From: an uncultured Gammaproteobacteria bacterium | Lineage (GTDB): Bacteria > Patescibacteriota > Microgenomatia > UBA12405 | Direction of reading: 5' to 3' | Length of the DNA: 39,550 nucleotides | NCBI GenBank assembly: GCA_964557475.1 | Contig: CAZLAG010000002.1 | Coordinates: 1 to 39,550, forward strand | Shown: in pieces, positions 36-39,468 of the stretch | Position numbering within the stretch: position 1 is the stretch's first letter | Layout: every line of letters starts with the position of its first letter | Position numbers and translations under genes: made by a program | The notes under the pieces: generated by a model | What the model saw: only the letters and a program-made list of their open reading frames with translations | Databases searched by the model: none | Told to the model about the DNA's origin: nothing

Positions 36-1790
36 ATGTTTTTTAAAAAAATAATTCATCACAAATATTTTTGGCCTATTCTTACTTTTATCCTAATAAT
101 TCCTGCTTTTTCTTTTTTGTTCAAACCAGGATATTACAATATGCATGATGACATGCAAATGATTCGACAACTTGAAATGGAAAAATGTTTAGCTGACGGT
201 CAAATACCTTGCCGCTGGACTCCAGATTTGGGTTATGGTTATGGTTATCCACTTTTCAATTTTTACCCTCCTATGCCTTATATGGTTGGGCAAGTTTATC
301 GAACACTTGGTTTTACTTTTATTAATTCAGTTAAAGCTACTGCTATAACTCAAATTATACTTTCAGCTGCTTTTATATATTTATTATCATCATCAATTTT
401 TGGCCCAATTGGTGGTTTTTTATCATCAATTTTTTATACCTATGCTCCATACCATGCTCTAAATATTTATGTTCGAGGTGCTATGAATGAAGCTTGGGCA
501 GCTGTGTTTTTTCCCTTGATATTTTATTTTTCTCGAAAGTTAGTTTTACAAGGTAAGCTTAAGTATTTATTAGGATTATCTATTAGTTTCACTTGTCTTT
601 TACTGTCACACAATCCCATGGCTCTAACTTTTGTGCCTATTCTATTCGCTTGGGTTTTATTTTGGTTTTTCAGTAAATATCAAAAGCCATTTATTCCTTT
701 CATTAAAAAGAAGCTTCCAATAATTTTAAAATTAGCCTTTTCCGGTCTTTTAGCAGGTGTTTTAGCCGCTTTTTATACTATTCCCGTAATTTTTGAAACT
801 AAACTTGTTCAAATAAATACTATGTTTGAAGGTTATTATCATTTTTCTGTTCATTTTGCCACTCTTTATGAACTTTTTATCAGAAGTTTTTGGGGTGATG
901 GTGCCTCTGTCTGGGGTCCAAATGACGATATGTCATTTTCAATTGGTTACCTTCATTGGATTATTCCAATTTTAATTTTGGGATTTATCATCTGGAAAAT
1001 TATAAAATATCGCCGTCATCTTCGAAAAATTGATCAAAAATATTGGCTTTTAGCTTTACTTATCATTATGGGTTTTATTACTGTATTTATGACCCACAAC
1101 AAATCTACTTTTATTTGGTTACTTTTACCAACCATTCAAAAAATTCAATTTCCTTGGAGATTCTTAAATCATTCAGTTTTTCTTTTTTCATTATCAATTG
1201 GTGGTTTAGCCTTAATTTTAAAATTATTATCAAAAGATTATCTAAAATATTTAATTTTGTCAGTTATATCAATTTTATTGATTATTATTAATGTTTCTCA
1301 TTTCACTCCGGTAACTTATGGTCCTATTACTGACGAACAAAAATTTTCAGGTAAGGCTTGGGTAAATCAAATTACATCAGGTATATATGACTATTTACCA
1401 AAAACCGCCAAAACAGCTGCAAAAAGAGCTGCTAATCCATTTGTTGATGAAGTAGATCCAAATATCAATTATCAAATTGACGATCAAAAACAGGGAAGTA
1501 ATTGGACCTATTTTAAAATTAATCTCAATAAACCATCCAAAATAATTCTTTCTCAACTGGCTTTTCCTAACTTTACAGTAACCGACAACAATCAACCTTT
1601 AGAGTATTCAATTGAACCGGAATTAGGTCGTATCGTTATAAACTTATCTGCCGGTGATCATCAAATTTTTGTTAAATTTGTTGATACTCCAATTAGAACC
1701 GTTTCAAACTATATTTCTTTATTTGGCTGGATATTTGTTTTGTTATTTTTCACTAAACCACTATGGAAACGATTGATTTACAGGAAATAA
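36..1790 (+). CDS. Polytopic membrane protein, GT-C-like glycosyltransferase candidate (PTPS-related / YfhO-like type); paralogue of 19913-21568
   Basis: 584-codon ORF from ATG 36 with many hydrophobic segments. Acidic HDD motif directly after TM1 (KPGYYNMHDDMQMIRQLE), a GYGYGYPLFNFYPP loop, and HNKSTFIW and FPWRF motifs. Roughly 40-50% identical by eye to ORF 19913-21568. A C-terminal ~150-aa non-hydrophobic domain is followed by a terminal TM helix. The family name is recalled, not searched. Confidence 0.7.
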   Translation: MFFKKIIHHKYFWPILTFILIIPAFSFLFKPGYYNMHDDMQMIRQLEMEKCLADGQIPCRWTPDLGYGYGYPLFNFYPPMPYMVGQVYRTLGFTFINSVKATAITQIILSAAFIYLLSSSIFGPIGGFLSSIFYTYAPYHALNIYVRGAMNEAWAAVFFPLIFYFSRKLVLQGKLKYLLGLSISFTCLLLSHNPMALTFVPILFAWVLFWFFSKYQKPFIPFIKKKLPIILKLAFSGLLAGVLAAFYTIPVIFETKLVQINTMFEGYYHFSVHFATLYELFIRSFWGDGASVWGPNDDMSFSIGYLHWIIPILILGFIIWKIIKYRRHLRKIDQKYWLLALLIIMGFITVFMTHNKSTFIWLLLPTIQKIQFPWRFLNHSVFLFSLSIGGLALILKLLSKDYLKYLILSVISILLIIINVSHFTPVTYGPITDEQKFSGKAWVNQITSGIYDYLPKTAKTAAKRAANPFVDEVDPNINYQIDDQKQGSNWTYFKINLNKPSKIILSQLAFPNFTVTDNNQPLEYSIEPELGRIVINLSAGDHQIFVKFVDTPIRTVSNYISLFGWIFVLLFFTKPLWKRLIYRK

Positions 1791-3217
1791 AACACGTAAC
1801 GACAAAAAATGTTTTATTTCTTTCTCTAAGAAATATCGGGATTCAAGCTGTTTCAGTCTTAGGTTATTTTATTTTAACTATTCTTCTTGGTACTGGAGAA
1901 GTCGGTCTTTTTGCTATTGTTTCTGAATCTGTTGGTATATTAGGTTATTTTTCAGATATAGGTTTGGCCGCAGCTCTTATTCAAAAAAAAGATAAGATAA
2001 CTAAAGCTGAACTTCAAACTACTTTTGTCATTCAACAAATTTTAGTTTTTCTATGTCTTATTGCCATAGCAATAATTTTTAATAAAATATCTATTTCAAA
2101 AAATTATGGTTCAAAAGAAACTTGGATTTTTATTTCTCTTTGTTTTTCGTTTTTTGCTGCCTCTCTAAAGACTATTCCTTCAGTTCTTTTAGAAAGAAAA
2201 CTGGATTTTAAAGTTATTTCTACGATAGATATCGTTGAAAATGTCAGTTTTTATTTAATTGCTGTTATTTTTGCTTTTTTAGGTTTTGGAGTTTACGCTT
2301 ACGCTATTGCTACATTTATCAGAAGCTTATTAGGATTAATTATTATTTACGTTAAGAGTCCGTGGCCATTTGGATTTTCTTTTTCCAAATCAGCTGTCAA
2401 AAGTTTATTTAAATATGGTATTCCATATCAACTAAATTCATTTATTTCTGTTGCCAAAGATCGCCTTTCAAATTTAATGGTAGCTGGTATTTTAGGTCGT
2501 GAAGGTTTTGGTATTCTTTCTTGGGCGCAAAAAGGACCTCGAATTCCTTTAAGTTTTATGGATGCAATTATGAGAATAACTTTTCCAACTTTTTCTAGAA
2601 TGCAAGATCATCCAGAAATATTAAAAAAATCATTAGAAAAAAGTCTCTTTTTTATTGCTTTATTTGTTTTTCCCGCTGTAACCGGAATTGCTATGATTTC
2701 TCCAAATATTATCAGTATTATTCCTAAATACACCAAATGGGCTCCTGCCATAATTCCTCTTTATTTTTATGCTATCAACGTTGCCATTGCCTCAATTACA
2801 TCTCCTTTAACCAACGCTTTTAATGCCACTGGTAAAATTTTACTAACAACTAAATTTATGGTCATGTGGACTACTTTAACTTGGATTTTATTTCCAATCC
2901 TTACTATTAAATACGGTATTATTGGTACTTCTGTTGCTACAGTATTAGTTGGAAGTAGCTCAGTTGTTGTTTGGATAGTCGCCCGTCGATTATTTAATGT
3001 TAATGTTGTCAAAACTGTTCTTAAACCATTTATCGGTAGTCTCTTAATGGTATTAATTCTTTTATCAGTTCAGTCTTTACCTTTAAGTTCATTAATGATT
3101 TTTATTACTAAAATTATTTCCGGCATATTAATTTACGGTCTTTACATGTTAGTTTTTTCCCGTCAAGAAATTATTTGGTTTTGGCAACAACTTTTATGTC
3201 TAAAAAACAGAAAATAA
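1763..3217 (+). CDS. MOP-superfamily polysaccharide/oligosaccharide flippase (Wzx/RfbX-like polysaccharide biosynthesis protein)
   Basis: 484-aa ORF from ATG 1763, overlapping the upstream gene by 28 nt. About 12-14 hydrophobic helices. The N-terminal pattern NVLFLSLRNIGIQ...GLAAALIQKKD is typical of Wzx-type polysaccharide biosynthesis proteins. Confidence 0.8.
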   Translation: METIDLQEIKHVTTKNVLFLSLRNIGIQAVSVLGYFILTILLGTGEVGLFAIVSESVGILGYFSDIGLAAALIQKKDKITKAELQTTFVIQQILVFLCLIAIAIIFNKISISKNYGSKETWIFISLCFSFFAASLKTIPSVLLERKLDFKVISTIDIVENVSFYLIAVIFAFLGFGVYAYAIATFIRSLLGLIIIYVKSPWPFGFSFSKSAVKSLFKYGIPYQLNSFISVAKDRLSNLMVAGILGREGFGILSWAQKGPRIPLSFMDAIMRITFPTFSRMQDHPEILKKSLEKSLFFIALFVFPAVTGIAMISPNIISIIPKYTKWAPAIIPLYFYAINVAIASITSPLTNAFNATGKILLTTKFMVMWTTLTWILFPILTIKYGIIGTSVATVLVGSSSVVVWIVARRLFNVNVVKTVLKPFIGSLLMVLILLSVQSLPLSSLMIFITKIISGILIYGLYMLVFSRQEIIWFWQQLLCLKNRK

Positions 3218-4854
3218 TTTTTGTTTTAGTTTTTATATCTTGTTTTTTTATTCAAATTATTCCTGTAATTCGTAGCGGTCTTCAATATAATAATGGTCTT
3301 GGTTTTTGGGGAAGTAATGGCCATGACGCAATTTGGCACCTTAGTTTGATAAATCACATAAAAAATCCATTTAAAATAGAACTTCCAATTTATGCCGGAT
3401 CATTTCTAAAAAATTACCATCCATTTTTTGATATCTTAATTGCTTTTCTTAGTCGAATTAGTCATATTTCTTCATTTACTTGGTATTTTCAAATATTTCC
3501 TATTATTTCTACATTTTTATTATTAATTACTTCTTACATTTTAGGTAAAAAAATATCTCAAAAATTTACCGGTGGAATACTTTTGATGTTTTTTAATTCA
3601 TTCGCCAATTCCTTTGGTTGGATTGTTTCATTGATTAAATCTGGACAAATCAATGGAGAATCTTTATTTTGGGCCATGCAATCTGTTTCCAATCAGTTAA
3701 ATCCACCATTTTTACTTTCATTAATATTAATTAACTTATTACTCATATTAATTATTGATATCAAAACTAAGTCTTCGATTCTAAAAAGTATTATTATCGT
3801 TTTGATTTTAGCTATTAATCCAATTACAAAAGCGTATGGCGGAGTTGCTACTTATTTGATATTCGGATTTTATTCATTATTTATTTTTAATAAAAATAAA
3901 AAACCTTTTTTACTTTTATTAATTTCTTTACCAATATCGTATTTATTTTTTTCAACTTACAATTCTACTTCAACTTCTCTTTTTGTATTCAAACCTTTTT
4001 GGTTTTCAAATACTTTAATAGAAGCAGCAGATAGATTGTATTTTCCTAAAATAGTAAGTATGAGATATAGTCTTGAAGCTAGTGGTTTAATTGGCCCAAG
4101 ACTCATTGCCATTTATTGTTTTTCAATAGCTTTATTTTATTTTGGAAATTTTGGAGTGCGATTATTGGGTATTTTTTCCTTAAAAAAATTTAAGAATGTA
4201 ATTAAACTACCATTACTACTAACCATTATGATAACTGCCATTATTCCCATGGTTTTTATTCAAAAGGGAACTAGTTGGAATACAATTCAATTTTTATACT
4301 ATTCTTTGTTCTTTAGTAATATCTTTTTAACGTTATATTTAACTCAAAAATCTTCTAAGATTATTTCATTTGTAATTATTGTGTTAACAATAATACCTTG
4401 TTATGAAACTTTAAATACTTTTTTATCAAACCCATCACCAGCAGTTTTACCTCAAGATGAAGTAATTGCTTTAAATAAATTAAAAGAATTACCCTCGGGT
4501 ACAGTTTTAACTTATCCTTATGATCAATATAAAAAGAAAAGTATGTCTACTCCTATACCCTTATATGCCTATGAAACTACTGCTTATGTTTCTGCTTTTT
4601 CTCAAAAATCTGTTTTTCTAGAAGACGAAATGAATCTAGATATCACTGGTATTGATTGGAAAAGCCGACGTTTAGAAATTGAAAAGTTTTTTAGTAGCAA
4701 AGACGAATTTTTTACTCGAGGATTTTTAGTTAATAATCAAATTGATTATATCTATTTAGTGAATAATCAAACTTTTTCAATAAATGAATCAAAGCTTCAA
4801 ATAAATCAAATTTATAATCATGGTCAAATTCGAATATATCAAGTTCAAAGATGA
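3196..4854 (+). CDS. Polytopic membrane protein with C-terminal soluble domain; candidate GT-C / polymerase-like enzyme of unknown family
   Basis: The ORF track starts at TTG 3175. ATG 3196 (MSKKQKIIFVLVF...) is the more likely start. It has a TM1 then GHDAIWHLSL...NYHPFFD pattern, resembling the D..H motif after TM1 in ORF 36-1790. There are at least 10 hydrophobic segments and a ~140-aa hydrophilic C-terminal domain (PSPAVLPQDEV...IYLVNNQ). No confident family assignment. Confidence 0.65.
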   Translation: MSKKQKIIFVLVFISCFFIQIIPVIRSGLQYNNGLGFWGSNGHDAIWHLSLINHIKNPFKIELPIYAGSFLKNYHPFFDILIAFLSRISHISSFTWYFQIFPIISTFLLLITSYILGKKISQKFTGGILLMFFNSFANSFGWIVSLIKSGQINGESLFWAMQSVSNQLNPPFLLSLILINLLLILIIDIKTKSSILKSIIIVLILAINPITKAYGGVATYLIFGFYSLFIFNKNKKPFLLLLISLPISYLFFSTYNSTSTSLFVFKPFWFSNTLIEAADRLYFPKIVSMRYSLEASGLIGPRLIAIYCFSIALFYFGNFGVRLLGIFSLKKFKNVIKLPLLLTIMITAIIPMVFIQKGTSWNTIQFLYYSLFFSNIFLTLYLTQKSSKIISFVIIVLTIIPCYETLNTFLSNPSPAVLPQDEVIALNKLKELPSGTVLTYPYDQYKKKSMSTPIPLYAYETTAYVSAFSQKSVFLEDEMNLDITGIDWKSRRLEIEKFFSSKDEFFTRGFLVNNQIDYIYLVNNQTFSINESKLQINQIYNHGQIRIYQVQR

Positions 4855-4871: not shown

Positions 4872-5807
4872 ATGAAATCTAATCCAACTATTTCAGTCGT
4901 TATCAATGTCAGAAACGAAGCTGAAGATTTAAAAAAATGTTTAAAATCAGTTAAAGGTTTTGCTAACGAAATTATTGTTGTCGATATGAATTCCACTGAT
5001 GGTAGTCAGGAAATTGCCAAATCTTACGACGCTAAGGTCTTCTCGTATAAACCAATGAAATTTGTCGAACCTGCCAGAAACTTTGCTTTATCAAAAGCTA
5101 CTGGTAAATGGATATTATTACTTGATCCAGATGAATATGTCAACAAAACTCTAAAGAAAGAACTTGCCAATATTACCAAAAGAAGTGATATTGATTATGT
5201 CAGAATTCCTCGTCAAAACATGATCTTTGGTAAATGGATTAAACATTCAAATTGTTGGCCTGATTATTTAATTAGATTTTTTAAAAATGGCAGTGTCACT
5301 TGGCAAAAAGAAATTCACAGTCAACCAATTACCAAAGGTAATGGTCTAACTTTATTAGACTCAGATCAATTGGCTATTAAACATAACAATTACGCTTGTA
5401 TTACTGATTTTATAAACAGAGCAGTCCGTTACAGTTCCATTCAAGCTGATGAATTAAATAATCAAGATTACAAACTTAAAGTTAGTGATTTTATTCTTAA
5501 GCCAATTCAAGAATTTAATAGCCGTTTTTTCTTTGCTGAAGGTTATAAAGATGGCTTTCACGGATTAGTGTTTTGTTTACTCCAAGGTTTTGCTATCGGT
5601 CTTATTTATATTAGACTTTGGGAAAAGCAAGGATCTCTTGATAAACCAATTTTAAAAGAATCTTTTGTTTCCGCTTCACAAGAAGCCAATTTTGAATATG
5701 ATCATTGGTTTGTTAAATTTTACAAACAGGAATGTGCCCCTGGACCTTTTAAAAGAATATTAATTCGTGTTCGGCATACTCTTAACTATCTCACCAAAAA
5801 TTTTTAA
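4872..5807 (+). CDS. Family 2 glycosyltransferase (GT-A), WaaE/KdtX-like subtype
   Basis: ISVVINVRNEAEDLKKCL...IIVVDMNSTDGS...LLLDPDE (DxD-type) ...CWPDYLIRFFKNG. Paralogous to 6722-7501 and 26434-27258. Confidence 0.85.
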   Translation: MKSNPTISVVINVRNEAEDLKKCLKSVKGFANEIIVVDMNSTDGSQEIAKSYDAKVFSYKPMKFVEPARNFALSKATGKWILLLDPDEYVNKTLKKELANITKRSDIDYVRIPRQNMIFGKWIKHSNCWPDYLIRFFKNGSVTWQKEIHSQPITKGNGLTLLDSDQLAIKHNNYACITDFINRAVRYSSIQADELNNQDYKLKVSDFILKPIQEFNSRFFFAEGYKDGFHGLVFCLLQGFAIGLIYIRLWEKQGSLDKPILKESFVSASQEANFEYDHWFVKFYKQECAPGPFKRILIRVRHTLNYLTKNF

Positions 5808-5816: not shown

Positions 5817-6725
5817 ATGAAGACAGTTGCTATTATTATTCTCAACTGGAAACAACCCCAACTTACTGTCGATACGATTGATTCCGTCTTAAAAATAAAA
5901 CATTCAAATTTTGAATATAAAATAATTTTGGTTGATAATGGTTCACCTGATAACTCATTAGATATTTTTAAAGAAAAATATCTAAAAAATAATCATGTAA
6001 AGCTTTTAAATACTAAATCAAATTTAGGTTATGCTGGTGGAAATAATTTTGGTATTAATTATGCTTTAAAAAATAAATATGATTATTTAATGGTTCTAAA
6101 TAATGATGTTTTAGTCGATCCGATGTTTGCTCAAGAATTAGTTGGACAATTAAAAAGATACGATATTGTTGGCCCAAAAATATATTTTGCTCCTGGTTTT
6201 GAATATCACAAAAATCGTTATCAAAAAAATGATTTAGGTAAAGTTATCTGGTCAATGGGTGGTCAAGTTGATTGGGATAATATTTATGGTAGTAATATTG
6301 ATATTGACAAGATTGATCATGGTCAATTTAATGAAATAAATACAAATATAGATTTTATTAGTGGTTGTTGTTTTCTCGCCAAAAATGAGGTTTTTAAAAA
6401 AATAGGTAATTTTGATGAAAATTATTTTATGTATATGGAAGATGTTGATTTTTGTCATCGTGCCAAGTTAAATGGTTTTTCTTTAGCCTGTATTCCCAAA
6501 TCATATATTTGGCATGTAAATTCTGGATCTACTAAAGGCCCAGGTCATTTACAAAATTACTTTATTACTCGAAATAGGATCTATTTTGCTTCTAAGTTTG
6601 CCAAACCAAGGACTAAATTTGCAATTTTTAGAGAATCTTTTAAATTCTTATTTAAATCTTATTGGCAACGTCGTGGAGTAATTGATTTTTATTTAAAAAA
6701 AATGAAAAAGGGGAGTTGGAAATGA
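5817..6725 (+). CDS. Family 2 glycosyltransferase (GT-A), COG1216/rhamnosyltransferase-like subtype
   Basis: VAIIILNWKQ...VDNGSPDNS...LGYAGGNNFG...VLNNDV...SGCCFLAKNEVFKKIGNFDENYFMYMEDVDFCHRAKLNGF. Confidence 0.85.
   Translation: MKTVAIIILNWKQPQLTVDTIDSVLKIKHSNFEYKIILVDNGSPDNSLDIFKEKYLKNNHVKLLNTKSNLGYAGGNNFGINYALKNKYDYLMVLNNDVLVDPMFAQELVGQLKRYDIVGPKIYFAPGFEYHKNRYQKNDLGKVIWSMGGQVDWDNIYGSNIDIDKIDHGQFNEINTNIDFISGCCFLAKNEVFKKIGNFDENYFMYMEDVDFCHRAKLNGFSLACIPKSYIWHVNSGSTKGPGHLQNYFITRNRIYFASKFAKPRTKFAIFRESFKFLFKSYWQRRGVIDFYLKKMKKGSWK
6710..6715 (+). promoter_or_regulatory. Shine-Dalgarno-like GGGGAG, the only clear one seen in the window
   Basis: GGAG ends 6 nt before ATG 6722. I inspected the 15 nt upstream of all other proposed starts and found no comparable purine-rich GGAG/GAGG element. 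Confidence 0.5.
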
Positions 6726-7501
6726 AATTAACCAATCTTTCAATTATCATTTTAGCTGGTAATGAAGAAAAAATGATTGTTGATTGTCTTAAATCATGTT
6801 TTTTTGCTGAAGAAATTATTTTAGTTGCTGCTAATTCTACCGATAATACAATTAACCTTGCTAAACAAACAATTCCATTAATTAAAATAATAAAAACAAA
6901 CGATGGTTACAATCGTAATTTTTCTAAATGGCGTAATTTAGGTTTAAAAAACAGTACAAAAGACTGGATTTTATATATTGATTCAGATGAAAGAGTAGAT
7001 CAATTTCTTCAAAAAGAAATAAGTAAAATTGTTACTAACAAATCACAGTTTTCACACTTTGCCATACCTAGGGCCAATTTTTATTTAGGTAAAAGAGTAA
7101 AGCATGGTGGTTCTTATCCAGATTATGTTATTAGACTTTTCCAAAAAAAATATCTTCATGGTTATCAAGGTATTTTACATGAACAACCCCAAGTCGATGG
7201 TCAAATTTCATATTTAAAATCTGATCTTTCCCATTTTACTCATCGAGATCTTTCTTCAATGCTTCAAAAAACATTAGTTTGGACAGATATGGAAGCAAAA
7301 GCTTTATATGATCATAATCATCCCCCTGTTGTTTGGTGGCGTTTTATTAGAATGATGTTTACCAAAATATGGGAAAGACTTATTAAACAACAAATGTGGA
7401 AAGATGGTACAGTCGGCTGGATCTCTGTTATTTTCGAAACTTTTGATACTTTTTTAATTTACGCTAGGCTTTGGGAAATTCAACAAAAAGCCAAAAAATA
7501 A
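6722..7501 (+). CDS. Family 2 glycosyltransferase (GT-A), WaaE/KdtX-like subtype
   Basis: The track starts at TTG 6716. ATG 6722 is preferred because it is preceded by GGGGAG (6710-6715) with a 6-nt spacer and forms an ATGA overlap with the upstream stop. Motifs: LSIIILAGNEE...NSTDNT...YIDSDE...SYPDYVIRLFQKK. Confidence 0.85.
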   Translation: MKLTNLSIIILAGNEEKMIVDCLKSCFFAEEIILVAANSTDNTINLAKQTIPLIKIIKTNDGYNRNFSKWRNLGLKNSTKDWILYIDSDERVDQFLQKEISKIVTNKSQFSHFAIPRANFYLGKRVKHGGSYPDYVIRLFQKKYLHGYQGILHEQPQVDGQISYLKSDLSHFTHRDLSSMLQKTLVWTDMEAKALYDHNHPPVVWWRFIRMMFTKIWERLIKQQMWKDGTVGWISVIFETFDTFLIYARLWEIQQKAKK

Positions 7502-8698: not shown

Positions 8699-8699
8699 T

Positions 8700-13069: not shown

Positions 13070-13515
13070 TTTTTTTCTACACATTTTAATGTAACAGCCG
13101 ACTTAATTTCTTGAAAATAATCATTTTTATTTATTTCTTTACCATCAATATAACAAGAAAAATTTCCATCTAATATTTTTTTATTAAACCCTACAATTCT
13201 TTCGTATTCATTTAAAAAACCTGCATAAGTTTTATCTTCAATTGCTGACAAAGAAAGAGTACTATTGGCTTTTTTACCATCTCGACAATTGATTTCAACT
13301 TTTACATAATCTGTCTTTTTTGGATCACCCAATATTTGATATTTACACAAATCATCAGTTTTATCTCTAAATTTCGATTGACCCATAATCAATGTGTTAA
13401 CTTTTTCTTCAGAAAAATTATTTTTTAATCTTTTTTTTAGACCAAAATAAATTGTTGTCACAATTACAAGGTAAACAATCAAAAAACCAATTAATAATTT
13501 ACTTCTTCGAGTCAT
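13066..13515 (-). CDS. Small N-terminally membrane-anchored protein with four Cys, unknown function
   Basis: ATG at 13515-13513 (the track adds one upstream TTG codon). One N-terminal TM (LLIGFLIVYLVIVTTIYFGL), then a ~115-aa hydrophilic domain with 4 Cys (DDLCKY, INCRDG, FSCYIDG, LKCVEKK). Translationally coupled (ATGA) to the downstream GT-C gene. No recognisable family. Confidence 0.55.
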   Translation of the reverse strand: MTRRSKLLIGFLIVYLVIVTTIYFGLKKRLKNNFSEEKVNTLIMGQSKFRDKTDDLCKYQILGDPKKTDYVKVEINCRDGKKANSTLSLSAIEDKTYAGFLNEYERIVGFNKKILDGNFSCYIDGKEINKNDYFQEIKSAVTLKCVEKK

Positions 13516-32530: not shown

Positions 32531-33516
32531 ATATCTTAATTCCCACCTATAATGGGGCAAAATGTATTACTCAAACATTAAAAAGTATTCTTTCTCAGGA
32601 TTTTGATGATTTTGAAATCATCATTTCCGATGATGTTTCCAAAGACAATACAATTGCTGTTATCAAAAAAATTAAAGATAAAAGAATTAAAATCTTTAAG
32701 AATAAAAAAAATCTTGGTTATTCATTAAACTTAGAAAACGCTCGAAGATTAGCTACCGCCGACATCATTTACCTTATGGGGCAAGATGATATTATGGCCA
32801 CACATACTCTCAAAAATACTTTTAATGCTTTTAAAGATCCCAAAATTGGAGCCGTCACCAGACCCTATTATTGGTTTGATAAAAAAATAAAAACTCCAGT
32901 CCGAGCCAAAAGACAATTAGATTCCACCAAAGATACTGTTGTAAAAATTACCGATGACCCTCAAAAAGTAATTCGAGTCTTTGAAACTTTGGATCAATTA
33001 TCAGGTTTGGCCTATCGTAAAAAATTTATGAAATTACCTTTTCACCCTGATATTTTTCCTTGTCATATTTATCCTTTTGCTGACATTTTCAAAAATCACC
33101 CAGTCATGTTTCTCAAAGATTATAATATTGCTGTCCGTATCGCCAGTAGTCAGACTAGAAGTCTTTCGTCTATTTACAATAAATCTCCACTTTTAAGTTG
33201 GGTTGAAATGGTTAAATCAATTTTTAGTGAAAAGAAGTATCAAAGTGTTCAAAAATATTTAATTAAAAATTTCATTACCAAAAATTATGTTGGATTAGTT
33301 CAACTTCGTAATTATGCTCGCTATAAATATTTTCTTAGAGAAATTTGGTATTTGGTTAAATTTAATTATTTAAATTTATTAAATCCTGCATTTTGGTTTT
33401 TTTCATTAGGTTGTATTATCACGCCACCCTTTATTCTTATCCCTATGGTTGATAATTACAAAAACAAAATTTATTCAAAAAGTTTGACTAAAATTAAATT
33501 TGAATATAAATTTTGA
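32518..33516 (+). CDS. Family 2 glycosyltransferase
   Basis: IDILIPTYNGAKCITQTL...EIIISDDVSKDNT...NLGYSLNLENA...YLMGQDD. One hydrophobic C-terminal segment. Confidence 0.8.
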   Translation: MASIDILIPTYNGAKCITQTLKSILSQDFDDFEIIISDDVSKDNTIAVIKKIKDKRIKIFKNKKNLGYSLNLENARRLATADIIYLMGQDDIMATHTLKNTFNAFKDPKIGAVTRPYYWFDKKIKTPVRAKRQLDSTKDTVVKITDDPQKVIRVFETLDQLSGLAYRKKFMKLPFHPDIFPCHIYPFADIFKNHPVMFLKDYNIAVRIASSQTRSLSSIYNKSPLLSWVEMVKSIFSEKKYQSVQKYLIKNFITKNYVGLVQLRNYARYKYFLREIWYLVKFNYLNLLNPAFWFFSLGCIITPPFILIPMVDNYKNKIYSKSLTKIKFEYKF

Positions 33517-33517
33517 T

Positions 33518-34081
33518 ATGTATAAAATTTTTCTGTTTTTCAGCAAAATATACACCTTTTTCATCAAAAGTAATTTTCAGTCATTTGGTAAAAATTCTAT
33601 CATTAAACCATTTTTAAATTTTTCCAATGCTAATTTTATTAATATTGGTCAGAGTGTAAATATAGGTAATTCTTGTCGTATCACTGTAAGTACTGATTTT
33701 TGCAGTATACCCACTAAAAGTAAAACTAAAACTAAAATAAAGATAGGTAACCACGTTGATATTGGCAATAATACCTTTATTAGTGCCAATAACGACATAA
33801 AAATTGGTGATCACGTAATAATGGGTCCATATGTTTTTATTACCGATCATGATCATGGTTTTAAAGATATTAAAAAAAATCTTCATCAACAACCTCTCAC
33901 CGAAAATGGTCATGTTTTAATCGAAAACAATGTATTTTTGGGAACCAAATGTAGCATTTTAAAAAATGTTTCGATAGGTCAACATTCTGTCATTGGAGCT
34001 AATTCAGTCGTCACTCAAGATATTCCTCCATTCTCAATTGTTGCCGGTAATCCAGCTAGAATAATTAAAAAAATAAAATGA
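33518..34081 (+). CDS. Hexapeptide-repeat (left-handed beta-helix) sugar O-acetyltransferase, WbbJ/LacA-like
   Basis: The track starts at TTG 33500. ATG 33518 lies 1 nt after the upstream stop. Repeats IGNHVDIGNNTFISANNDIKIGDHVIMGPYVFI...VFLGTKCSILKNVSIGQHSVIGANSVV, ending with the typical PPFSIVAGNPARIIKK. Confidence 0.85.
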   Translation: MYKIFLFFSKIYTFFIKSNFQSFGKNSIIKPFLNFSNANFINIGQSVNIGNSCRITVSTDFCSIPTKSKTKTKIKIGNHVDIGNNTFISANNDIKIGDHVIMGPYVFITDHDHGFKDIKKNLHQQPLTENGHVLIENNVFLGTKCSILKNVSIGQHSVIGANSVVTQDIPPFSIVAGNPARIIKKIK

Positions 34082-35100
34082 ACTTTCTTCGACAAATCAA
34101 AAACTTAGTTGAAACTAATAAAGTTATCTCGTCTTCATTTGATTTATTTGCTTCCACGCCTGTCTATCAAAAATTAATTAAATATAAAATAAACAAAACC
34201 ATCCTTAATCTTAAAAAAAATAAAAATTACAACATAATTATTGAAACTACAAATTTTTGTAATGCTAAATGCATTATGTGTCCTCATACAATTATGAAAC
34301 GTCCTCAAAAAATCATGAGTGAGGATATTTTTAATCAAATCATAAAACGTCTTATTCAAGAAAAAATTAAACCCAATGCTTTCATTCTTAATGGATTTGG
34401 TGAACCACTCATCGATACTCAAATAATCAATCGAATCAAAATCATAAAAACTACCTTTCCCAAAAGTAAATTAAAATTTTATTCAAATTTCAATCTAGCA
34501 ACTTCTAAATTAATTCATAATTTAGTTTCTTCTGGTCTCGACGAAATCAATATTAGTCTTAACGGATACAATTCGTTAACTTATCAAAAAGTGATGAAAA
34601 TAGATTATCAAAAAACCATTTCTAACCTCAAAGAATTAATCAAAATTAATCGAAAACACAATTCTCCTCTAAAAATTAGAATTTCTATGACATTGGTAAA
34701 ACATAATGAAACATCAATCAAAAAATTTATCGACAAATGGGGTAATTTAGTTGATTCTGTTAGTGTCAATAAAGTCCACGATTATCATGGTAATGTTTCC
34801 AATCAAGCCAATAAATTTAAAATTAATTTTCATAAAAAAATTTTTCCCTGTAGATATATTTGGGATACAATTCCTATTGATGTTGATGGAAATATCACTC
34901 TTTGTTGTTTAGACTATGAATCTCAATATAAATTTGGCAACATCAAATCACAGCCAATCCTAAAAAGTTTTTATACTCCCAAATTCAATACCATCAGACA
35001 ACAACATCTTGATAATAATATTTCCCATATTAATATATGTCGCACTTGTTACACCCCATACAAAAATGGAGTAGAGTGGCTATTTGAAAAACTTTACTAA
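34078..35100 (+). CDS. Radical SAM enzyme with C-terminal SPASM/twitch-like Cys-rich domain
   Basis: ATGA overlap. Canonical CX3CX2C (NFCNAKCIMCPH; Cys codons at 34258-34281). GFGEPL glycine-rich motif. C-terminal Cys pattern PCRY...DGNITLCCLDYE...ICRTC (5 Cys). Confidence 0.85.
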   Translation: MNFLRQIKNLVETNKVISSSFDLFASTPVYQKLIKYKINKTILNLKKNKNYNIIIETTNFCNAKCIMCPHTIMKRPQKIMSEDIFNQIIKRLIQEKIKPNAFILNGFGEPLIDTQIINRIKIIKTTFPKSKLKFYSNFNLATSKLIHNLVSSGLDEINISLNGYNSLTYQKVMKIDYQKTISNLKELIKINRKHNSPLKIRISMTLVKHNETSIKKFIDKWGNLVDSVSVNKVHDYHGNVSNQANKFKINFHKKIFPCRYIWDTIPIDVDGNITLCCLDYESQYKFGNIKSQPILKSFYTPKFNTIRQQHLDNNISHINICRTCYTPYKNGVEWLFEKLY

Positions 35101-35103: not shown

Positions 35104-35760
35104 ATGAATTTAACCTATATATATCCAATCTTTCACAAATTAGATTATTGTCTCCAAAAAGAATTAAAAGATTGTAAAACTGTTCTCGATCTTGGTTGTG
35201 GTCCATCATCTCCACTGAAAAATATTAAACATCTAAAATATAGTTTAGGTGTAGAGGCTTTCAAACCATATTTAGATCTATCTAAAAAAAATAAAATTCA
35301 CACTAAATATCTTCAAAAGAATATTTTAGAAGTAAACTTTCCCGATAATAGTTTTGATGCTGTAATTTTAATTGAAGTTATTGAACATCTTTCCAAAAAA
35401 GATGGTCAAAAAATAATAAGGAAAGCTTTCAGATGGGCCAAGAAAAAAGTAATTTTAAGCACTCCCAATAAATATTTTGAAATGGGTCAAGTTGATCAAA
35501 ATCCTTACCAACAACACCGTTCTGGTTGGTCGATAATAGAACTAAAAAATCTTGGTTTTAAAGTTAACGGTGTCAGTGGATTAAAAATGTTTTACCAAGA
35601 AGAAAATCATATTAATAGTTTAATAATCAATAAACCATATCAAAACATTAAATTTAAACCCAAAATATTGTTTTATTATATTAATGCTTTTTGTCAGATA
35701 TTTAATTACTACTATCCAAAATTTTCCTTTGGTTTGTTTGCTGTAAAAGAAAAAATATGA
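35104..35760 (+). CDS. Class I SAM-dependent methyltransferase
   Basis: Motif I VLDLGCGPSS, post-I and motif II-like FDAVILIEVIEHL, then KKVILSTPN. Confidence 0.8.
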   Translation: MNLTYIYPIFHKLDYCLQKELKDCKTVLDLGCGPSSPLKNIKHLKYSLGVEAFKPYLDLSKKNKIHTKYLQKNILEVNFPDNSFDAVILIEVIEHLSKKDGQKIIRKAFRWAKKKVILSTPNKYFEMGQVDQNPYQQHRSGWSIIELKNLGFKVNGVSGLKMFYQEENHINSLIINKPYQNIKFKPKILFYYINAFCQIFNYYYPKFSFGLFAVKEKI

Positions 35761-36947
35761 AACCAATTAAAATTAGTTTTTTATTCAATCAACTGACTAA
35801 CTCTGTTCTTTGTACAGGTGGTGAAATTAGAGGATTTACTATTGCTAGTTTTTTTAAAAAAAACAAAAAGTTTAAGGTTGAAATAATCACTCCTGAAATT
35901 GGTTCAAAATCATTTCCTAAATTCAAAAAAAGGATAATCGGTCATCAAAAAATCGAAAAATACTTAAATCAGCAAACATTATTTTCATCGTTCATTTTAT
36001 TTATTGAACGGACAATAATTTCATTATTTAATTTATCTTTTTTTAAAGCTGATATTATTTATGCCACCGGTGATTTCTTTTGCGATATTATTCCCGCCTT
36101 TTTTGCCAAAATTATTTATCCCAAAACCAAGACAGTTGTCTGTATTCATCATATTAATCAAAATCCTTTCAAAAGAAAAACTAATTCATTTTTATCAGGA
36201 ATCATTTCATATTTAATCCAACAATTAAGTTTTTTCCTTATAAAACAAAAGTTCGATTTAATTTTTGTGGTTAATCATCAAGTCAAACAATATCTTCTTC
36301 AAAAAAATATTACTCAACCAATTATTGTTGTTGGTAACGGACTTGATATTAAAACTATAAAAAAACAAATTGATAATTTACACGACATTAAACCGAGTAA
36401 CCATATTAGTTACTTTGGTCGTCTTTCTGTTACCAAGGGTGTTTATGATTTACCCATAATTCTTAGTAAGATTTTAAAAAAACATTCTGATATTCAATTA
36501 GATATTATTGGAGCTTCTATTCCTAAAATAAAAGATACTTTAATTGAAAAATTTAATCAACAAAATTGTCAAAACCATTTTCACATTCATGATTTTGTCG
36601 TAGATAAAAATGACATCTTTAAAATTCTACTTCAATCAAAAGTCATTATTTTTCCTTCATATGAAGAAGGCTGGGGAATTTCCTTATTTGAATCGATTAT
36701 GACCAAAAGACCAGTAGTCACATATAATTTACCTATCTTTGATGAAATATTTGAAGGTAATTTAATTTCTGCTCCATTAGGGGATACTAAAATATTTGTT
36801 CAAAAAACAATTGAATTGATCGATAATTATCAATCAACTTCAACCCAAAATTATATTAAAAATTGTTATCAAATTGCTCAAAAATATAGTTGGGAAAATG
36901 TATTTTTAACAGAAAAAAAATATCTAATTAAACTAATTAATCAATGA
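35757..36947 (+). CDS. GT-B fold glycosyltransferase, family 4-like
   Basis: ATGA overlap. CTGGEIRG near the N-terminus and a C-terminal PSYEEGWGISLFESIMTKRPVVTYNLPIFDEIF. Confidence 0.8.
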   Translation: MKPIKISFLFNQLTNSVLCTGGEIRGFTIASFFKKNKKFKVEIITPEIGSKSFPKFKKRIIGHQKIEKYLNQQTLFSSFILFIERTIISLFNLSFFKADIIYATGDFFCDIIPAFFAKIIYPKTKTVVCIHHINQNPFKRKTNSFLSGIISYLIQQLSFFLIKQKFDLIFVVNHQVKQYLLQKNITQPIIVVGNGLDIKTIKKQIDNLHDIKPSNHISYFGRLSVTKGVYDLPIILSKILKKHSDIQLDIIGASIPKIKDTLIEKFNQQNCQNHFHIHDFVVDKNDIFKILLQSKVIIFPSYEEGWGISLFESIMTKRPVVTYNLPIFDEIFEGNLISAPLGDTKIFVQKTIELIDNYQSTSTQNYIKNCYQIAQKYSWENVFLTEKKYLIKLINQ

Positions 36948-37744
36948 AACAAGTTAAACCAAAACTGTACGATCAAAAATATTTTGACTATCAATCAACT
37001 TCGCCAGATTTTTCTCAAAAATTAACCAAAAATAATTTCCACAAAAAATATCAAGAAATCACCAATCTTATTAAATTAAAACCGACAGACAAAGTTTGTG
37101 ATCTTGGTTGTGGTAATGGAGATCTTAGTTTTCTTCTCTTTCTAAAATATCAATGTCAAATAACTGCTATTGATTATTCATCAGATGCTATCAAAATTTG
37201 CAAAACAAAACTTACTAAGTTTAAAAAAAACACTTTCAAACAAGTAAATATAAAATTTTATAATTTAGATAATCTTCACTTACCAACACTAAAAAATATT
37301 CAAGTTGTCTATTTTTGTGATGTTTTTGAACATTTATATCCAGAAGAAATCAATTTTGTTGTAAACTCTGTTTCCAAATGGGGGAGCCCCAAAATTATTG
37401 TTCATACCGACAATAATCTTTATTTAAAATTAGTTCAACCGATAATTGACATCTTGTCCTTAATAATGGGCAAAACTACTTTAAAACAAATCAAACAACG
37501 AAAAGAATTTGACCAAAAAAGGCACGTCAATCTTACCAGTCCACGACGACTACGAAAAACTATGAAAAAACTTGGTTATCAACAAACATTTTTAACTTAT
37601 CCAAACATTGACACTCAAACAATCAAAAATCAACTCGGCAAGTTGTCAAACTTTAAACCAATTATTAATTTGTCATTAGTAATTCTTCGATTATTTCCAT
37701 TTTTAATTCCCAGTTTCTATTGTCTATATACCAAAGATAATTAA
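36944..37744 (+). CDS. Class I SAM-dependent methyltransferase
   Basis: ATGA overlap. Motif I VCDLGCGNGDLS, and VVYFCDVFEHL. Confidence 0.8.
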   Translation: MKQVKPKLYDQKYFDYQSTSPDFSQKLTKNNFHKKYQEITNLIKLKPTDKVCDLGCGNGDLSFLLFLKYQCQITAIDYSSDAIKICKTKLTKFKKNTFKQVNIKFYNLDNLHLPTLKNIQVVYFCDVFEHLYPEEINFVVNSVSKWGSPKIIVHTDNNLYLKLVQPIIDILSLIMGKTTLKQIKQRKEFDQKRHVNLTSPRRLRKTMKKLGYQQTFLTYPNIDTQTIKNQLGKLSNFKPIINLSLVILRLFPFLIPSFYCLYTKDN

Positions 37745-39468
37745 TTATCGATACTTTTTAATAAATTTACTGCATCAGTAAAATTTGGGATTTGTGCCAC
37801 AATAAGTCGCAAAATTTCTTTTGCTTTATCTATTTCGCCTTTTTTAATATCGACATATGCTTCTATATACCAAACTTGAGCATCGTTTGGATAAATTTTC
37901 TTCAAAGATTCTACATCTTTAGTAGCTGAATCATAATCACCCGAAATCATATCAACTTGGATTAAACTTAAATAAGTTTGTTGCATCATCGGATTAAAAG
38001 ATAACGCTGTCAAATAACTATCTCTTGCTAAATCCAATCTGCCCATTTTATAAAAAATATTTGCTCTATTATGAAAAGCATCGGCATAGTTTGGCTTTAC
38101 TATAGTTGATTGAGTAAATCCTTTAACAGCATTTAAATATTGATTCATTTTCCCCTCATTTGTTTTTTCTAACTGAGCTAATTTATCATAATCATCTCCA
38201 ATATTATTCCAAGCATTATGACTATTTGGTGACACCTGACAAGCACTCACCCATAAATTATGATTTGTTTGCCAGTCAATATTTCTAAAAAATGTTCTCG
38301 TTGCATAAGCCATTATTAACAAAACCAAAAGTATCATTGATAATAATTTTGTTTTATTGTTTATTTTTTCCCAAATAATCGATAAAAACATACACCATCC
38401 CAATGATCCCAAAAAAACATATCGTTCGGCTACTAACCAGCTTATTTTTACTGGTGCCATACTTGGAGCAGTTGCCAAAAATATAAAAGATAAAGCAAAA
38501 AACATTTTTTTATTTTTAAAAAAAGAAAAACCAATCAAAGATAAAAATACTAATAATATTGACCAATTAATCCAAGTAGGGACGACATACATTGTATGAT
38601 ACAAGGTTAAATCTGTTGGCAACCAAATAAGTTGCAAATATTTTGCAATTGCAGTTGGGTATTGAAAAAATGGATTATAAAAAATACTATCAGAGGCATT
38701 TATTCCTGAATTGACCGATTCAATTCTATTAATCATTTGTGGCCAAAGAACCACAATTAATATAAAAAATAATCCACTAAACAATAATAATATTTTTCCT
38801 AAATTTATTTTCTTTTTTAGTTTATGGTCGAAAGACACCCAATAAAGTATTCCTAATAATGGCAAAGCCGCTGCTCTTGTTTTTTCAGCAGCAAATGTCA
38901 AAAATGCTGATACGAAAAAATACGAAATATATTTTTTATTTTCTGTTTTGGTATATAAAATAAAAAATATCAACGATAACAAAACAAACAAGGCATTCAA
39001 TAAATACGGTCTTCCCGCAATCCAAGATACCGTTTCCACATGGACTGGTAACACTGAAAATAAAATAGTCGTAATCATGGCCAAGTTTTTTCCCAAAATC
39101 AAATACACAAAAACAAATGCCACTAGTAATACCAACAAATAAACCAACAAACTAAAAACATGATAATGAATTGGACTATCGATACCAAACAAACGCGCCA
39201 AAAACCAATTAATCAACCCACCCATCCAACCACTTAATCCGTTTTTAAAACTCATTATTTGAGGATTGTTGGGAATGGTAGCGTAATCATCTGATACAAA
39301 AGCACCTTTTAATGAATTAAAAAATATACCAATTGTTCCCAAAAATAAAAGCATTAAAAACTTCCAATTCTCTTTGATAATTCCCCTAAAACCAGGCAAT
39401 TCCACTGATTCCTTTTTTATTTCAATTTTTTCCTCTCTTCTTATTTTCTTTAACCTCTTTTGGGACAT
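37741..39468 (-). CDS. TMTC-like GT-C glycosyltransferase fused to C-terminal TPR repeats (candidate protein O-glycosyltransferase)
   Basis: 575 aa. After TM1 comes GAFVSDDYATIPNNPQI, which matches the F-V-x-D-D-x-x-A-I-x-N-N signature of TMTC-type enzymes. About 10 TM segments. The last ~170 aa have TPR-like repeats (YADAFHNRANIFYKMGRLDLARDSYLTALSFNP..., DAQVWYIEAYVDIKKGEIDKAKEIL). Confidence 0.8.
   Translation of the reverse strand: MSQKRLKKIRREEKIEIKKESVELPGFRGIIKENWKFLMLLFLGTIGIFFNSLKGAFVSDDYATIPNNPQIMSFKNGLSGWMGGLINWFLARLFGIDSPIHYHVFSLLVYLLVLLVAFVFVYLILGKNLAMITTILFSVLPVHVETVSWIAGRPYLLNALFVLLSLIFFILYTKTENKKYISYFFVSAFLTFAAEKTRAAALPLLGILYWVSFDHKLKKKINLGKILLLFSGLFFILIVVLWPQMINRIESVNSGINASDSIFYNPFFQYPTAIAKYLQLIWLPTDLTLYHTMYVVPTWINWSILLVFLSLIGFSFFKNKKMFFALSFIFLATAPSMAPVKISWLVAERYVFLGSLGWCMFLSIIWEKINNKTKLLSMILLVLLIMAYATRTFFRNIDWQTNHNLWVSACQVSPNSHNAWNNIGDDYDKLAQLEKTNEGKMNQYLNAVKGFTQSTIVKPNYADAFHNRANIFYKMGRLDLARDSYLTALSFNPMMQQTYLSLIQVDMISGDYDSATKDVESLKKIYPNDAQVWYIEAYVDIKKGEIDKAKEILRLIVAQIPNFTDAVNLLKSIDN

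Follow-up and report, generated by a model that had tools for sequence, protein, structure and literature searches.

A locus dominated by GT-C enzymes

The window analyzed here, positions 1 to 39,550 of contig CAZLAG010000002.1 (assembly GCA_964557475.1; 39,550 nucleotides, or nt; G+C about 28%), is filled by a sugar-transfer locus in which polytopic glycosyltransferases (GTs) of the GT-C class predominate. Between positions 36 and 39468 lie exactly 33 open reading frames (ORFs) of at least 100 amino acids (aa), g01 to g33 (Table 1), with 29 on the plus strand and four (g11, g12, g14, and g33) on the minus strand; no overlap between neighbors exceeds 77 nt, no gap exceeds 39 nt, and coding sequence covers 99.5% of the window. 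Sugar-adding enzymes account for 26 of the 33 genes (10 GT2, 3 GT4, and 13 polytopic GT-C proteins), and the GT-C proteins make up more than half of the encoded residues (6,997 of 13,265 aa). Genes for the cytoplasmic GTs and for the GT-C enzymes are intermixed in an operon-like packing with overlaps of 4 to 77 nt. The other seven encode a MOP flippase, two radical SAM enzymes, a hexapeptide acetyltransferase, two methyltransferases, and the small protein g12.

An initial annotation of this DNA, made without database searches, had listed 33 back-to-back genes, among them thirteen GT-A or GT-B enzymes, thirteen polytopic proteins with an acidic motif in the first loop, and the flippase, radical SAM enzymes, acetyltransferase, and methyltransferases just named. 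This inventory is right gene for gene, with Pfam assigning the thirteen GT-A/GT-B enzymes to GT2 and GT4 and recovering each of the accessory enzymes. The GT-A/GT-B motifs it cited are found in part: a simple regular expression detects DxD or DD in 7 of the 10 GT2 enzymes, and EX7E is present in g07 and g31 and missing from g22. Its statement that the DNA encodes no WbaP/WecA-type enzyme, Wzz, nucleotide-sugar genes, or regulator also holds within the window: a Pfam scan of the 33 proteins returned no Bac_transf (WbaP type), Glycos_transf_4 (WecA type), Wzy_C, or Wzz domain, no ABC transporter, and no nucleotide-sugar enzyme; no regulator was detectable; and NCBIfam and Pfam together gave no match to an initiating phosphoglycosyltransferase, a Wzy polymerase, or a Wzz co-polymerase. 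Scans for tRNAs, Rfam families, and repeats revealed nothing notable in the window, the repeats being conserved GT2 motifs and AT-rich sequence.

The 13 polytopic proteins (452 to 592 aa) each show 6 to 11 strong hydrophobic segments in a Kyte-Doolittle scan, a crude method whose counts are too low; at least 11 long helices are present in the AlphaFold models of g03 and g33. In all 13, an acidic motif (HDD, HD, GD, DE, GD, PD, DE, DD, DD, DE, DE, PDE, and SDD) follows the first transmembrane segment (TM1) within 3 to 20 residues, and in ortholog alignments it is invariant as H50-D51 in g03, D60-D61 in g33 (preceded there by an equally invariant S59), and D33-E34 in g19. Lysine or arginine residues precede TM1 in 12 of the 13 proteins, in 11 of these without an acidic residue; in g14, TM1 extends from residue 1 and itself starts with MKK. 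Such N-termini favor an N-in topology with the first loop outside, and by the positive-inside rule the acidic motif would thus face outward.

At the level of families, six of the proteins match GT-C clan families above the Pfam cut-off, namely, g11, g15, and g19 (PMT_2), g20 (PMT), g14 (GT87), and g17 (PTPS_related/YfhO). A further five (g01, g10, g13, g16, and g18) fall below the cut-off and are paralogous to GT-C proteins by BLAST or by hhalign comparison of ortholog-built profiles; g10 and g13, for instance, align with g14 at 88 to 97% and with the PMT_2 group at 78 to 93% probability. Only g03 and the membrane domain of g33 lack a Pfam GT-C match. The GT-C paralogs are old (25 to 35% identity by BLAST) and comprise at least five lineages: PMT_2-like, GT87-like, YfhO-like, TPR-fused, and the g03 orphan. 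Searches of PDB sequences with g11, g14, g17, g19, and the g19-family profile gave nothing relevant, so these GT-C enzymes are too divergent for sequence links to solved structures.

The protein g03 has no match in Pfam or NCBIfam, and hhalign relates it to the other GT-C proteins of the window at no more than 20%. Its AlphaFold model, built with 37 orthologs (pLDDT 86.8, pTM 0.88), was compared with the PDB by Foldseek, and the top 27 matches are all GT-C enzymes, with the first transporter appearing after them at a probability of 0.21. AglB leads (3.6e-8), along with DPY19 (a C-mannosyltransferase), STT3, and PglB, and then AftA and ArnT; ALG12, Pmt4, Pmt1-Pmt2, EmbB, EmbA-EmbB, and ALG3 are also among the 27. 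The C-terminal globular domain likewise resembles that of AglB, including a match to an AglB paralog (3vu0). The model thus gives g03 a predicted GT-C fold. The gene overlaps that of the flippase g02 by 43 nt, and the pair is adjacent in every relative examined (L007, L008, and L089); g02 itself has NCBIfam matches to MOP flippases, TuaB, and O-glycosylation flippases, all below the cut-off. The g03 family, which comprises about 1,313 clusters at 50% identity (E <= 1e-3), is a new, orphan, flippase-coupled GT-C family.

Further features of this family emerge from its other members. The g03 orthologs are 552 to 553 aa long, so the called TTG start (3175-3195) is probably about 7 codons too early. 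Many members (among P0371-P0508) are 860 to 1,170 aa long, with an N-terminal signal-anchored soluble domain of ~430 aa that has the motifs FVTIINPVRG..EFW, TWLLR.D, and E[IV]GLF.E[VI]TP and no match in Pfam or among PDB sequences. This soluble domain also occurs, at 38% identity, about 7.5 kb downstream of a g19-like gene in Candidatus Woesebacteria RIFCSPHIGHO2_01_FULL_44_10 (L083:12137-13240), and therefore the fused form belongs to the homologous locus of a sister lineage.

In g33, Pfam detects only TPR repeats, at residues 457-570. Its membrane domain aligns by hhalign at 92 to 96% with seven GT-C proteins of the window (g01, g10, g11, g15, g17, g18, and g19), and JGI labels its orthologs "protein O-mannosyl-transferase". 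When the whole g33 model was submitted to Foldseek, the 50 matches listed were all TPR proteins, which swamped the membrane domain; the 60 best PDB matches of the g33-family profile were likewise TPR proteins, and a Pfam scan of 38 orthologs found PMT_2 in 2. The assignment of g33 to GT-C therefore depends on hhalign. Its TPR domain probably recognizes a protein acceptor.

All 13 polytopic proteins thus have GT-C evidence, be it from hidden Markov models, paralogy, profile-profile comparison, or, for g03, the fold match. The initial annotation had taken them for GT-C enzymes rather than transporters, and that identification is sustained. We consider it very improbable that several of them are instead Wzy/WaaL-like polymerases or ligases, or transporters, in an ordinary Wzx/Wzy cluster. 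The five proteins below the Pfam cut-offs, the two without a match, and the empty PDB searches would suit such a reading, but Pfam and NCBIfam matched none of the polytopic proteins to Wzy_C or a transporter family, the sub-threshold proteins are tied to supra-threshold GT-C paralogs, the g03 model ranks GT-C structures ahead of any transporter, and the acidic motif is universal among the thirteen. By analogy with known GT-C enzymes, the 13 proteins are expected to use extracytoplasmic polyprenyl-phosphate-linked sugar donors.

Coordinates and assignments of all ORFs are collected in Table 1. Some TTG starts as called are probably 7 to 30 codons too early, since orthologs are shorter. Proteins like g13 are 427 to 432 aa long, which places its TTG start (13452) probably about 30 codons too far upstream, and because its orthologs start later, the 67-nt head-to-head overlap of g12 and g13 (13452-13518) is likely an ORF-calling artifact.

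Table 1. ORFs of the window; E-values are for Pfam matches unless stated otherwise
Gene	Position	Strand	Length (aa)	Assignment	Matches and remarks
g01	36..1790	+	584	GT-C, YfhO/PTPS_related type	PTPS_related 1.1e-4, below cut-off; 35% identity, E 1e-90 to paralog g17; nine hydropathy peaks; HDD 8 residues after TM1
g02	1763..3217	+	484	MOP (Wzx-like) flippase	Polysacc_synt_3 4e-45
g03	3175..4854	+	559 (probably 552)	Orphan GT-C, predicted OST/DPY19-like fold, C-terminal globular domain	
g04	4872..5807	+		GT2 (GT-A), one C-terminal hydrophobic segment	Glycos_transf_2 5e-21
g05	5817..6725	+		GT2	Glycos_transf_2 6e-21; weak NCBIfam similarity to a rhamnosyltransferase subfamily
g06	6716..7501	+		GT2	Glycos_transf_2 2.5e-14
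g07	7517..8698	+		GT4 (GT-B)	Glycos_transf_1 1.5e-26; EX7E at 307
g08	8688..9578	+		GT2	Glycos_transf_2 2e-22
g09	9584..10390	+		GT2	Glycos_transf_2 3e-28
g10	10342..11700	+	452	GT-C (GT87-like), variable block 1	GT87 8.6e-4, below cut-off; BLAST to g13 E 2e-18; hhalign 100% g13, 88% g14, 96% g33; GD...W...QPPL after TM1
g11	11666..13084	-	472	GT-C (PMT_2), variable block 1	PMT_2 1.7e-8, above cut-off; 11 hydropathy peaks
g12	13066..13518	-	150	One N-terminal TM segment; partner of g11	No family match in Pfam or NCBIfam
g13	13452..14837	+	461 (probably about 430)	GT-C (GT87/ALG6-8-like), variable block 1	Alg6_Alg8 2e-3, below cut-off; hhalign 100% g10, 97% g14, 90-93% g15/g18/g20
g14	14763..16541	-	592	GT-C (GT87, PimE-like), variable block 1	GT87 1.5e-6, above cut-off; weak NCBIfam match to mannosyltransferase PRK13375
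g15	16581..18236	+	551	GT-C (PMT/PMT_2), variable block 1	PMT_2 1e-8, PMT 3e-5, above cut-off; DE after TM1
g16	18233..19906	+	557	GT-C (PMT_2 paralog), variable block 1	PMT_2 1.7e-3, below cut-off; BLAST E 8e-11 to 3e-19 vs g15/g18/g19/g20, hhalign 100%
g17	19913..21568	+	551	GT-C, semi-variable	PTPS_related 1.3e-13, above cut-off; YfhO 9e-6
g18	21558..23216	+	552	GT-C (PMT_2 family)	PMT_2 4e-5, just below cut-off; BLAST E 8e-59 to g20
g19	23200..24831	+	543	GT-C (PMT_2), conserved core	PMT_2 9e-13
g20	24791..26437	+	548	GT-C (PMT), conserved core	PMT 6e-7, above cut-off
g21	26434..27258	+		GT2, conserved core	Glycos_transf_2 6e-19
g22	27260..28330	+		GT4, conserved core	Glycos_transf_1 5e-24
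g23	28320..29126	+	268	GT2, conserved core; candidate polyprenyl-phosphate sugar synthase	
g24	29123..30100	+		GT2, three C-terminal hydrophobic segments, conserved core	Glycos_transf_2 2.5e-13
g25	30024..31517	+		B12-binding (class B) radical SAM, conserved core; probably in sugar tailoring	Radical_SAM 1.5e-15, B12-binding 1e-4; NCBIfam HpnJ 2e-37, below cut-off
g26	31514..32530	+		GT2, two C-terminal hydrophobic segments	Glycos_transf_2 3e-23
g27	32518..33516	+		GT2, C-terminal hydrophobic segment	Glycos_transf_2 6e-26
g28	33500..34081	+		Hexapeptide-repeat O-acetyltransferase (WbbJ-like), variable block 2	Hexapep 6e-16; NCBIfam WbbJ 3.5e-27, below cut-off
g29	34078..35100	+		Radical SAM/SPASM, variable block 2	Radical_SAM 2e-11, SPASM 4e-11
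g30	35104..35760	+		SAM-dependent methyltransferase, variable block 2	Methyltransf_11 5e-13; weakly like oligosaccharide methyltransferase MftM
g31	35757..36947	+		GT4	Glycos_transf_1 3e-16; EX7E at 304
g32	36944..37744	+		SAM-dependent methyltransferase	Methyltransf_31 1.5e-12
g33	37741..39468	-	575	Divergent GT-C membrane domain (about 1-400) and C-terminal TPR (about 410-575), TMTC-like architecture	

Host lineage, conserved frame, and replaceable blocks

Sequence relationships assign the locus to a bacterium of Candidatus Shapirobacteria, within the Candidate Phyla Radiation (CPR)/Patescibacteria. The 120 best database proteins for g19 include orthologs of 65 to 94% identity, and those named by source are from Shapirobacteria or Woesebacteria; taken together, orthologs of g19, g03, and g33 range from 50 to 94% identity, their named sources being Candidatus Shapirobacteria and, in a few cases, Woesebacteria. 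Among GTDB species representatives there are 226 g19 relatives, of which the best 80 are nearly all from Shapirobacteria, Microgenomates, Patescibacteria, or bins with placeholder names. Many representatives with the locus (L010, L012-L014, L018, L020-L025, and others) carry the title "uncultured Gammaproteobacteria bacterium", one that of "Candidatus Methanoperedens sp.", and one that of "Clostridia bacterium"; such labels appear to be placeholders or errors. The small-genome host envisaged by the initial annotation is borne out by a relative with a contig of 1,117,440 bp, and the 39.4-kb locus would take up about 3.5% of such a genome of ~1.1 Mb.

Conservation was counted over 37 related loci, each 20 kb or longer, in stretches of 21.6 kb whose 10-kb flank partly limits the values for g25 and g26. 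The block g19-g24 is syntenic in 36 to 37 of the 37 loci, down to about 42% identity, with g19, g20, g21, g22, and g23 present in every one and g24 in 36; g25 and g26 are found in 31 to 32. On the g18 side of this core the frequencies are 25 of 37 for g18, 17 for g17, 12 for g15, 4 for g16, and 1 for g13, and neither g10 nor g14 has an ortholog in any of the 37. Each stretch nonetheless holds 5 to 10 GT-C-like ORFs. The retention of g18, g19, and g20 as separate orthologs argues that they perform nonredundant steps.

Comparisons of individual genomes show both the stability of the frame and the replacement of its contents. An exact-sequence search with g17 returned no record from the collection examined, in which the closest DNA is a Logan contig, 99.6% identical over 6.3 kb, followed by a JGI contig at 89%. 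Genes g17-g20 of the window are retained in a contig with 89% DNA identity overall and a g19 that is 94% identical. In a genome at about 66% identity, the whole locus is collinear, from a GT2/PMT/GT2 group upstream of g01 through g33. The ENA contig k141_258666 is 78 to 95% identical to the window over g01-g09 and 78 to 91% over g19-g27, yet the GT-C genes that it carries between g09 and g19 reach just 27 to 46% identity to any window gene, and in place of g28-g30 it has an epimerase, a GT2, and an acetyltransferase and a B12-radical SAM enzyme that both differ from those of the window. The locus is thus a conserved frame with two replaceable blocks (g10-g17 and g28-g30), like the serotype regions of O-antigen and capsule loci. 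Within the first block, the g12-g11 pair is kept as a unit (43% and 63% identity to L007:13121-14984), the g12 ortholog lying directly upstream of the g11 ortholog in L007 and L008; in the nearest relative the pair stands on the opposite strand and at another position. This points to a mobile two-gene module, and no flanking inverted repeats were found at the pair.

A proposed hybrid pathway and its alternatives

The most conserved gene of the locus (median 72% identity) is g23, a GT2 whose best PDB sequence match is DPMS (5mlz, 1.8e-9), with GtrB (5ekp, 3e-7) and ArnC (9hwj, 7e-7, residues 8-215) among the next eight. NCBIfam relates it to ArnC (1e-9), PpgS (2e-9, with 4-217 of the 226 profile positions covered), and AglJ (2e-8). 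It is a DPMS/GtrB/ArnC/PpgS-like GT2 that could prime on polyprenyl monophosphate. As a primer, g23 would explain the missing phosphoglycosyltransferase; the initial annotation was right in finding no enzyme of that type but overlooked this candidate. Three other GT2 enzymes with C-terminal TM segments, g24, g26, and g27, had been considered as GtrB/DPM1-like synthases and were dropped in favor of g23: their NCBIfam matches are generic GT2 matches, and the PDB matches of g26 (5tze, "Glycosyl transferase", and chondroitin synthase, with DPMS only at 6e-4) and g27 are generic as well.

Taken with the gene order, these assignments are compatible with the window representing most of a conserved cell-envelope glycan island that encodes one hybrid pathway, first cytoplasmic and then extracytoplasmic; we prefer this reading to its rivals, with belief and doubt in it evenly balanced. 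On the cytoplasmic face, g23 would load a sugar onto polyprenyl phosphate, yielding a donor for the outside enzymes, an oligosaccharide primer, or both. The other nine GT2 and the three GT4 enzymes would extend the lipid-linked glycan, with tailoring of its sugars by the acetyltransferase, the two methyltransferases, and the two radical SAM enzymes; g02 would move the glycan across the membrane, and g03 would pass it, or its first sugar, to an acceptor. Outside the cell, further sugars would be added from polyprenyl-phosphate sugars by the twelve remaining GT-C enzymes, which represent at least four types. The core g19-g24 (mostly also g18, g25, and g26) would make the invariant part of the product, and the cassettes g10-g17 and g28-g30 its strain-specific parts. 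A possible hint of a Rosetta-stone link between flipping and transfer comes from P0402, a 1,639-aa protein found with the g03 profile, which joins a MOP flippase resembling g02 (E 5e-110) to the soluble domain and a g03-like GT-C protein. The extracytoplasmic assembly line of the initial annotation is thus supported as to the GT-C identity of its enzymes; the donors, the order of the steps, the acceptor, and the sharing of a single pathway are what we infer.

Several observations weigh against such a pathway. The NCBIfam scores of g23 are 37 to 38 bits, far below cut-offs of 370 to 529, and the protein has DAG where DPMS and GtrB have the DAD metal-binding motif and lacks a TM segment. PpgS/Ppm1-type enzymes are also without TM helices, so the lack of such a segment is compatible with polyprenyl-phosphate synthase activity; its binding of the metal or of the lipid substrate may be unusual, or it may need a partner. 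For g03, the TM-scores to its fold matches are about 0.5, those to the oligosaccharyltransferases (OSTs) being only about 0.5 as well, and no WWD or W[WYF]D of the WWDxG motif occurs in g03 or any other GT-C protein of the window. Because WWDxG is absent, g03 is not classed as a canonical OST of the STT3/AglB/PglB kind, an identification that we rejected despite the similar fold. P0402 is one metagenomic gene call and possibly mis-joined. The readable flanks of relatives show no priming phosphoglycosyltransferase, nucleotide-sugar genes, or obvious acceptor protein. Lastly, an ABC-2 permease/ATPase pair and large GTs lie 1 to 5 kb beyond g33 in two relatives (L006 and L091), so the polymer that the GT-C enzymes decorate could be the product of another route.

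These flanks were read in relatives, the window ending 82 nt past g33. Beyond g33 they carry a CofD/YvcK-like gene, the ABC-2 permease and ATPase, large bifunctional GTs, an epimerase, and a DegT or acyltransferase gene; upstream of g01 are further GT2 and PMT genes, a CLIPPER-domain protein, and FtsEX. Neither Wzy nor Wzz was found in these readable flanks, and both, like a priming enzyme, could lie elsewhere in the genome. At L006:6831-8973, a DUF5674 gene and a small ORF stand between permease and ATPase, with a methyltransferase-GT4 fusion nearby; at L091:4570-7215, a Fic/RhuM gene is inserted between them, with a GT2-GT4 fusion nearby. The block looks like a second, ABC-dependent glycan pathway, and given where the window ends, the ABC-2 pair may adjoin in this genome too. 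Within the window the locus is not an ABC-dependent system; the absence of an ABC exporter noted by the initial annotation is accurate there and does not extend to these two relatives.

This neighborhood bears on the main alternative, which we rate as less likely than not, that the GT-C enzymes are independent decoration modules, each enzyme or small group adding one sugar from a polyprenyl-phosphate sugar to a ready-made acceptor, with the Wzx-dependent oligosaccharide a separate product. Their acceptor could be the polymer of the ABC-2 transporter, a teichoic-acid-like polymer, or surface proteins such as pili or an S-layer. Besides the ABC-2 genes, the fusions, the epimerase, and DegT near g33 in the two relatives, the YfhO/PTPS_related type of g01 and g17 fits this arrangement, as does the gain, loss, and exchange of single GT-C genes between genomes, and one DPMS-like GT2 is evident and no more. 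Arrangements of this kind are known from the three-component and dual-chain wall polysaccharides of Gram-positive bacteria (GtrB/CsbB-GtcA-YfhO, streptococcal GacI/J/K/L, and the Wps/rhamnan of Lactococcus lactis), where a GT2 makes an undecaprenyl-phosphate sugar that is flipped and transferred by a GT-C enzyme to the wall polymer, a Wzx-like flippase can stand beside an ABC-exported backbone, and YfhO-type GT-C enzymes and strain-variable cassettes recur. Those loci, however, have one or two GT-C genes against 13 here, and the ABC exporter lies outside the window and has been seen in relatives only, with the CofD/YvcK-like gene in between. Thirteen single-sugar decorations of one polymer would be without precedent, and in the core g18-g26, the GT-C and cytoplasmic GT genes are interleaved and overlapping, which suggests joint function.

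Returning to the hybrid pathway, one set of close parallels is formed by the mycobacterial and corynebacterial lipomannan/lipoarabinomannan (LM/LAM) and arabinogalactan systems (PimA/PimB', PimE, MptA/B/C, EmbA/B/C, AftA-D, Ppm1, and PpgS with Rv3779). There, too, cytoplasmic GT-A/GT-B enzymes are followed by many GT-C enzymes of several families that use GT2-made polyprenyl-phosphate sugars; GT87 is among these families, as in g14, g10, and g13, and g23 resembles PpgS, while AftA is among the fold matches of g03. The mycobacterial genes, in contrast, are scattered over a genome of >4 Mb, as opposed to 13 GT-C genes in 39 kb of a ~1 Mb genome; the locus adds a MOP flippase and a TPR-fused GT-C protein, sequence identity is negligible, and no Emb-type carbohydrate-binding domains or genes for arabinose or decaprenyl-phosphate-ribose were seen here. 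A stricter form of this parallel, a lipoglycan of the LM/LAM type, seems improbable to us. In it, GT4 enzymes would glycosylate a membrane lipid (diacylglycerol or a phospholipid) on the inside, and after flipping, GT-C enzymes of the PimE/Mpt/Emb kind would extend the product from g23-made polyprenyl-phosphate sugar, a route that needs no phosphoglycosyltransferase, in keeping with the window. The GT87 (PimE family) similarity of g14, g10, and g13 would fit it, along with the resemblance of g23 to PpgS/Ppm-type synthases without TM helices and the weak NCBIfam similarities of g07, g22, and g31 to glycolipid-anchor GT4 enzymes (alpha-monoglucosyl-diacylglycerol synthase, IagA/BgsA, and GlcNAc-PG synthase). 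These last similarities are, however, far below the family cut-offs and generic for GT4, MOP flippases are known for polyprenyl-diphosphate-linked glycans rather than glycolipids, and CPR bacteria are largely without lipid synthesis.

The dolichol pathway of eukaryotes and archaea (ALG3/9/12/6/8/10, DPM1/ALG5, RFT1, and STT3/AglB; AglJ/G/I/E/D/R/S in Haloferax) offers a second parallel, with GT2 charging of the lipid, cytoplasmic construction, flipping, a GT-C series, and OST-type transfer. The best fold matches of g03 are AglB, STT3, and PglB, g23 is weakly like AglJ and DPMS, and g13 weakly like Alg6_Alg8; on the other hand, g03 diverges from the OSTs in its motif as noted, no ALG orthology is demonstrable, and the host is a bacterium with peptidoglycan. 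At the level of single enzymes, the GT-C membrane domain and C-terminal TPR of g33 recall the TMTC1-4 and PMT protein O-mannosyltransferases, and g11, g15, g19, and g20 match PMT/PMT_2; differing from these, the g33 membrane domain has no direct Pfam match, MIR domains are absent, and the protein acceptors are putative. With O-antigen and capsule loci of the Wzx/Wzy type the locus shares a MOP flippase, many GT2 and GT4 genes, acetyl- and methyltransferases, and conserved flanks around a hypervariable center. It differs in that the window is without nucleotide-sugar genes and more than half of its coding capacity is GT-C. Since searches of the window and of the readable flanks of relatives gave no priming enzyme, Wzy, or Wzz, we do not class the locus as Wzx/Wzy.

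Hybrid pathways with cytoplasmic GT-A/GT-B enzymes, a flippase, and several extracytoplasmic GT-C enzymes fed by polyprenyl-phosphate sugars are thus established, in LM/LAM, arabinogalactan, the dolichol pathway, and the Gram-positive three-component systems, and the earlier claim that the locus fits no known paradigm was overstated. Three features are distinctive: a ~1 Mb genome gathers so many and such diverse GT-C genes in a single operon-like locus, one of them belongs to an orphan family coupled to a flippase, and the cassettes vary.

Implications for episymbiotic bacteria

CPR/Patescibacteria form a large share of bacterial diversity, with genomes pared to about 1 Mb. To our knowledge, the cultivated ones all live attached to other microbes, and no glycan pathway of a CPR bacterium has been characterized. 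Literature searches combining Shapirobacteria, Microgenomates, or CPR/Patescibacteria with glycosyltransferase, GT-C, or mannosyltransferase returned no description of the locus, and no characterized pathway collinear with it was found in the searchable literature, in line with the initial annotation. Passing remarks mention 29 GT genes in one Microgenomates genome (PMC7143001) and, in Peribacteria, what may be 8 genes annotated as Dol-P mannosyltransferases (PMC4736985); a recent preprint on the pili of Saccharibacteria explicitly calls their glycosylation unexplored (PMC11623550).

The locus spans about 40 kb, or at least 50 kb if the adjacent ABC block of relatives is included. That a ~40-kb locus, more than half of it GT-C, is kept in a pared ~1 Mb genome suggests a large fitness effect of the surface glycan, and its composition an elaborate coat of sugars on the cell that varies among strains. 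More tentatively, and with doubt prevailing, we propose that Shapirobacteria and related Microgenomates possess a bacterial counterpart of the assembly line in the lumen of the endoplasmic reticulum, primed on polyprenyl monophosphate and flipped by a MOP protein, with at least 10 sequential nonredundant GT-C steps drawn from five lineages and transfer by g03. If so, both the attachment of these ultra-small episymbionts to host cells and their susceptibility to phages would be governed by the product, a large surface glycan that varies among strains. The locus provides a defined, conserved gene set for asking how episymbionts build their surface, and its natural cassette variation a way to link glycan structure with host or phage specificity. 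For structural and synthetic glycobiology, it also supplies a compact set of divergent GT-C enzymes, among which g03 represents a new flippase-coupled family.

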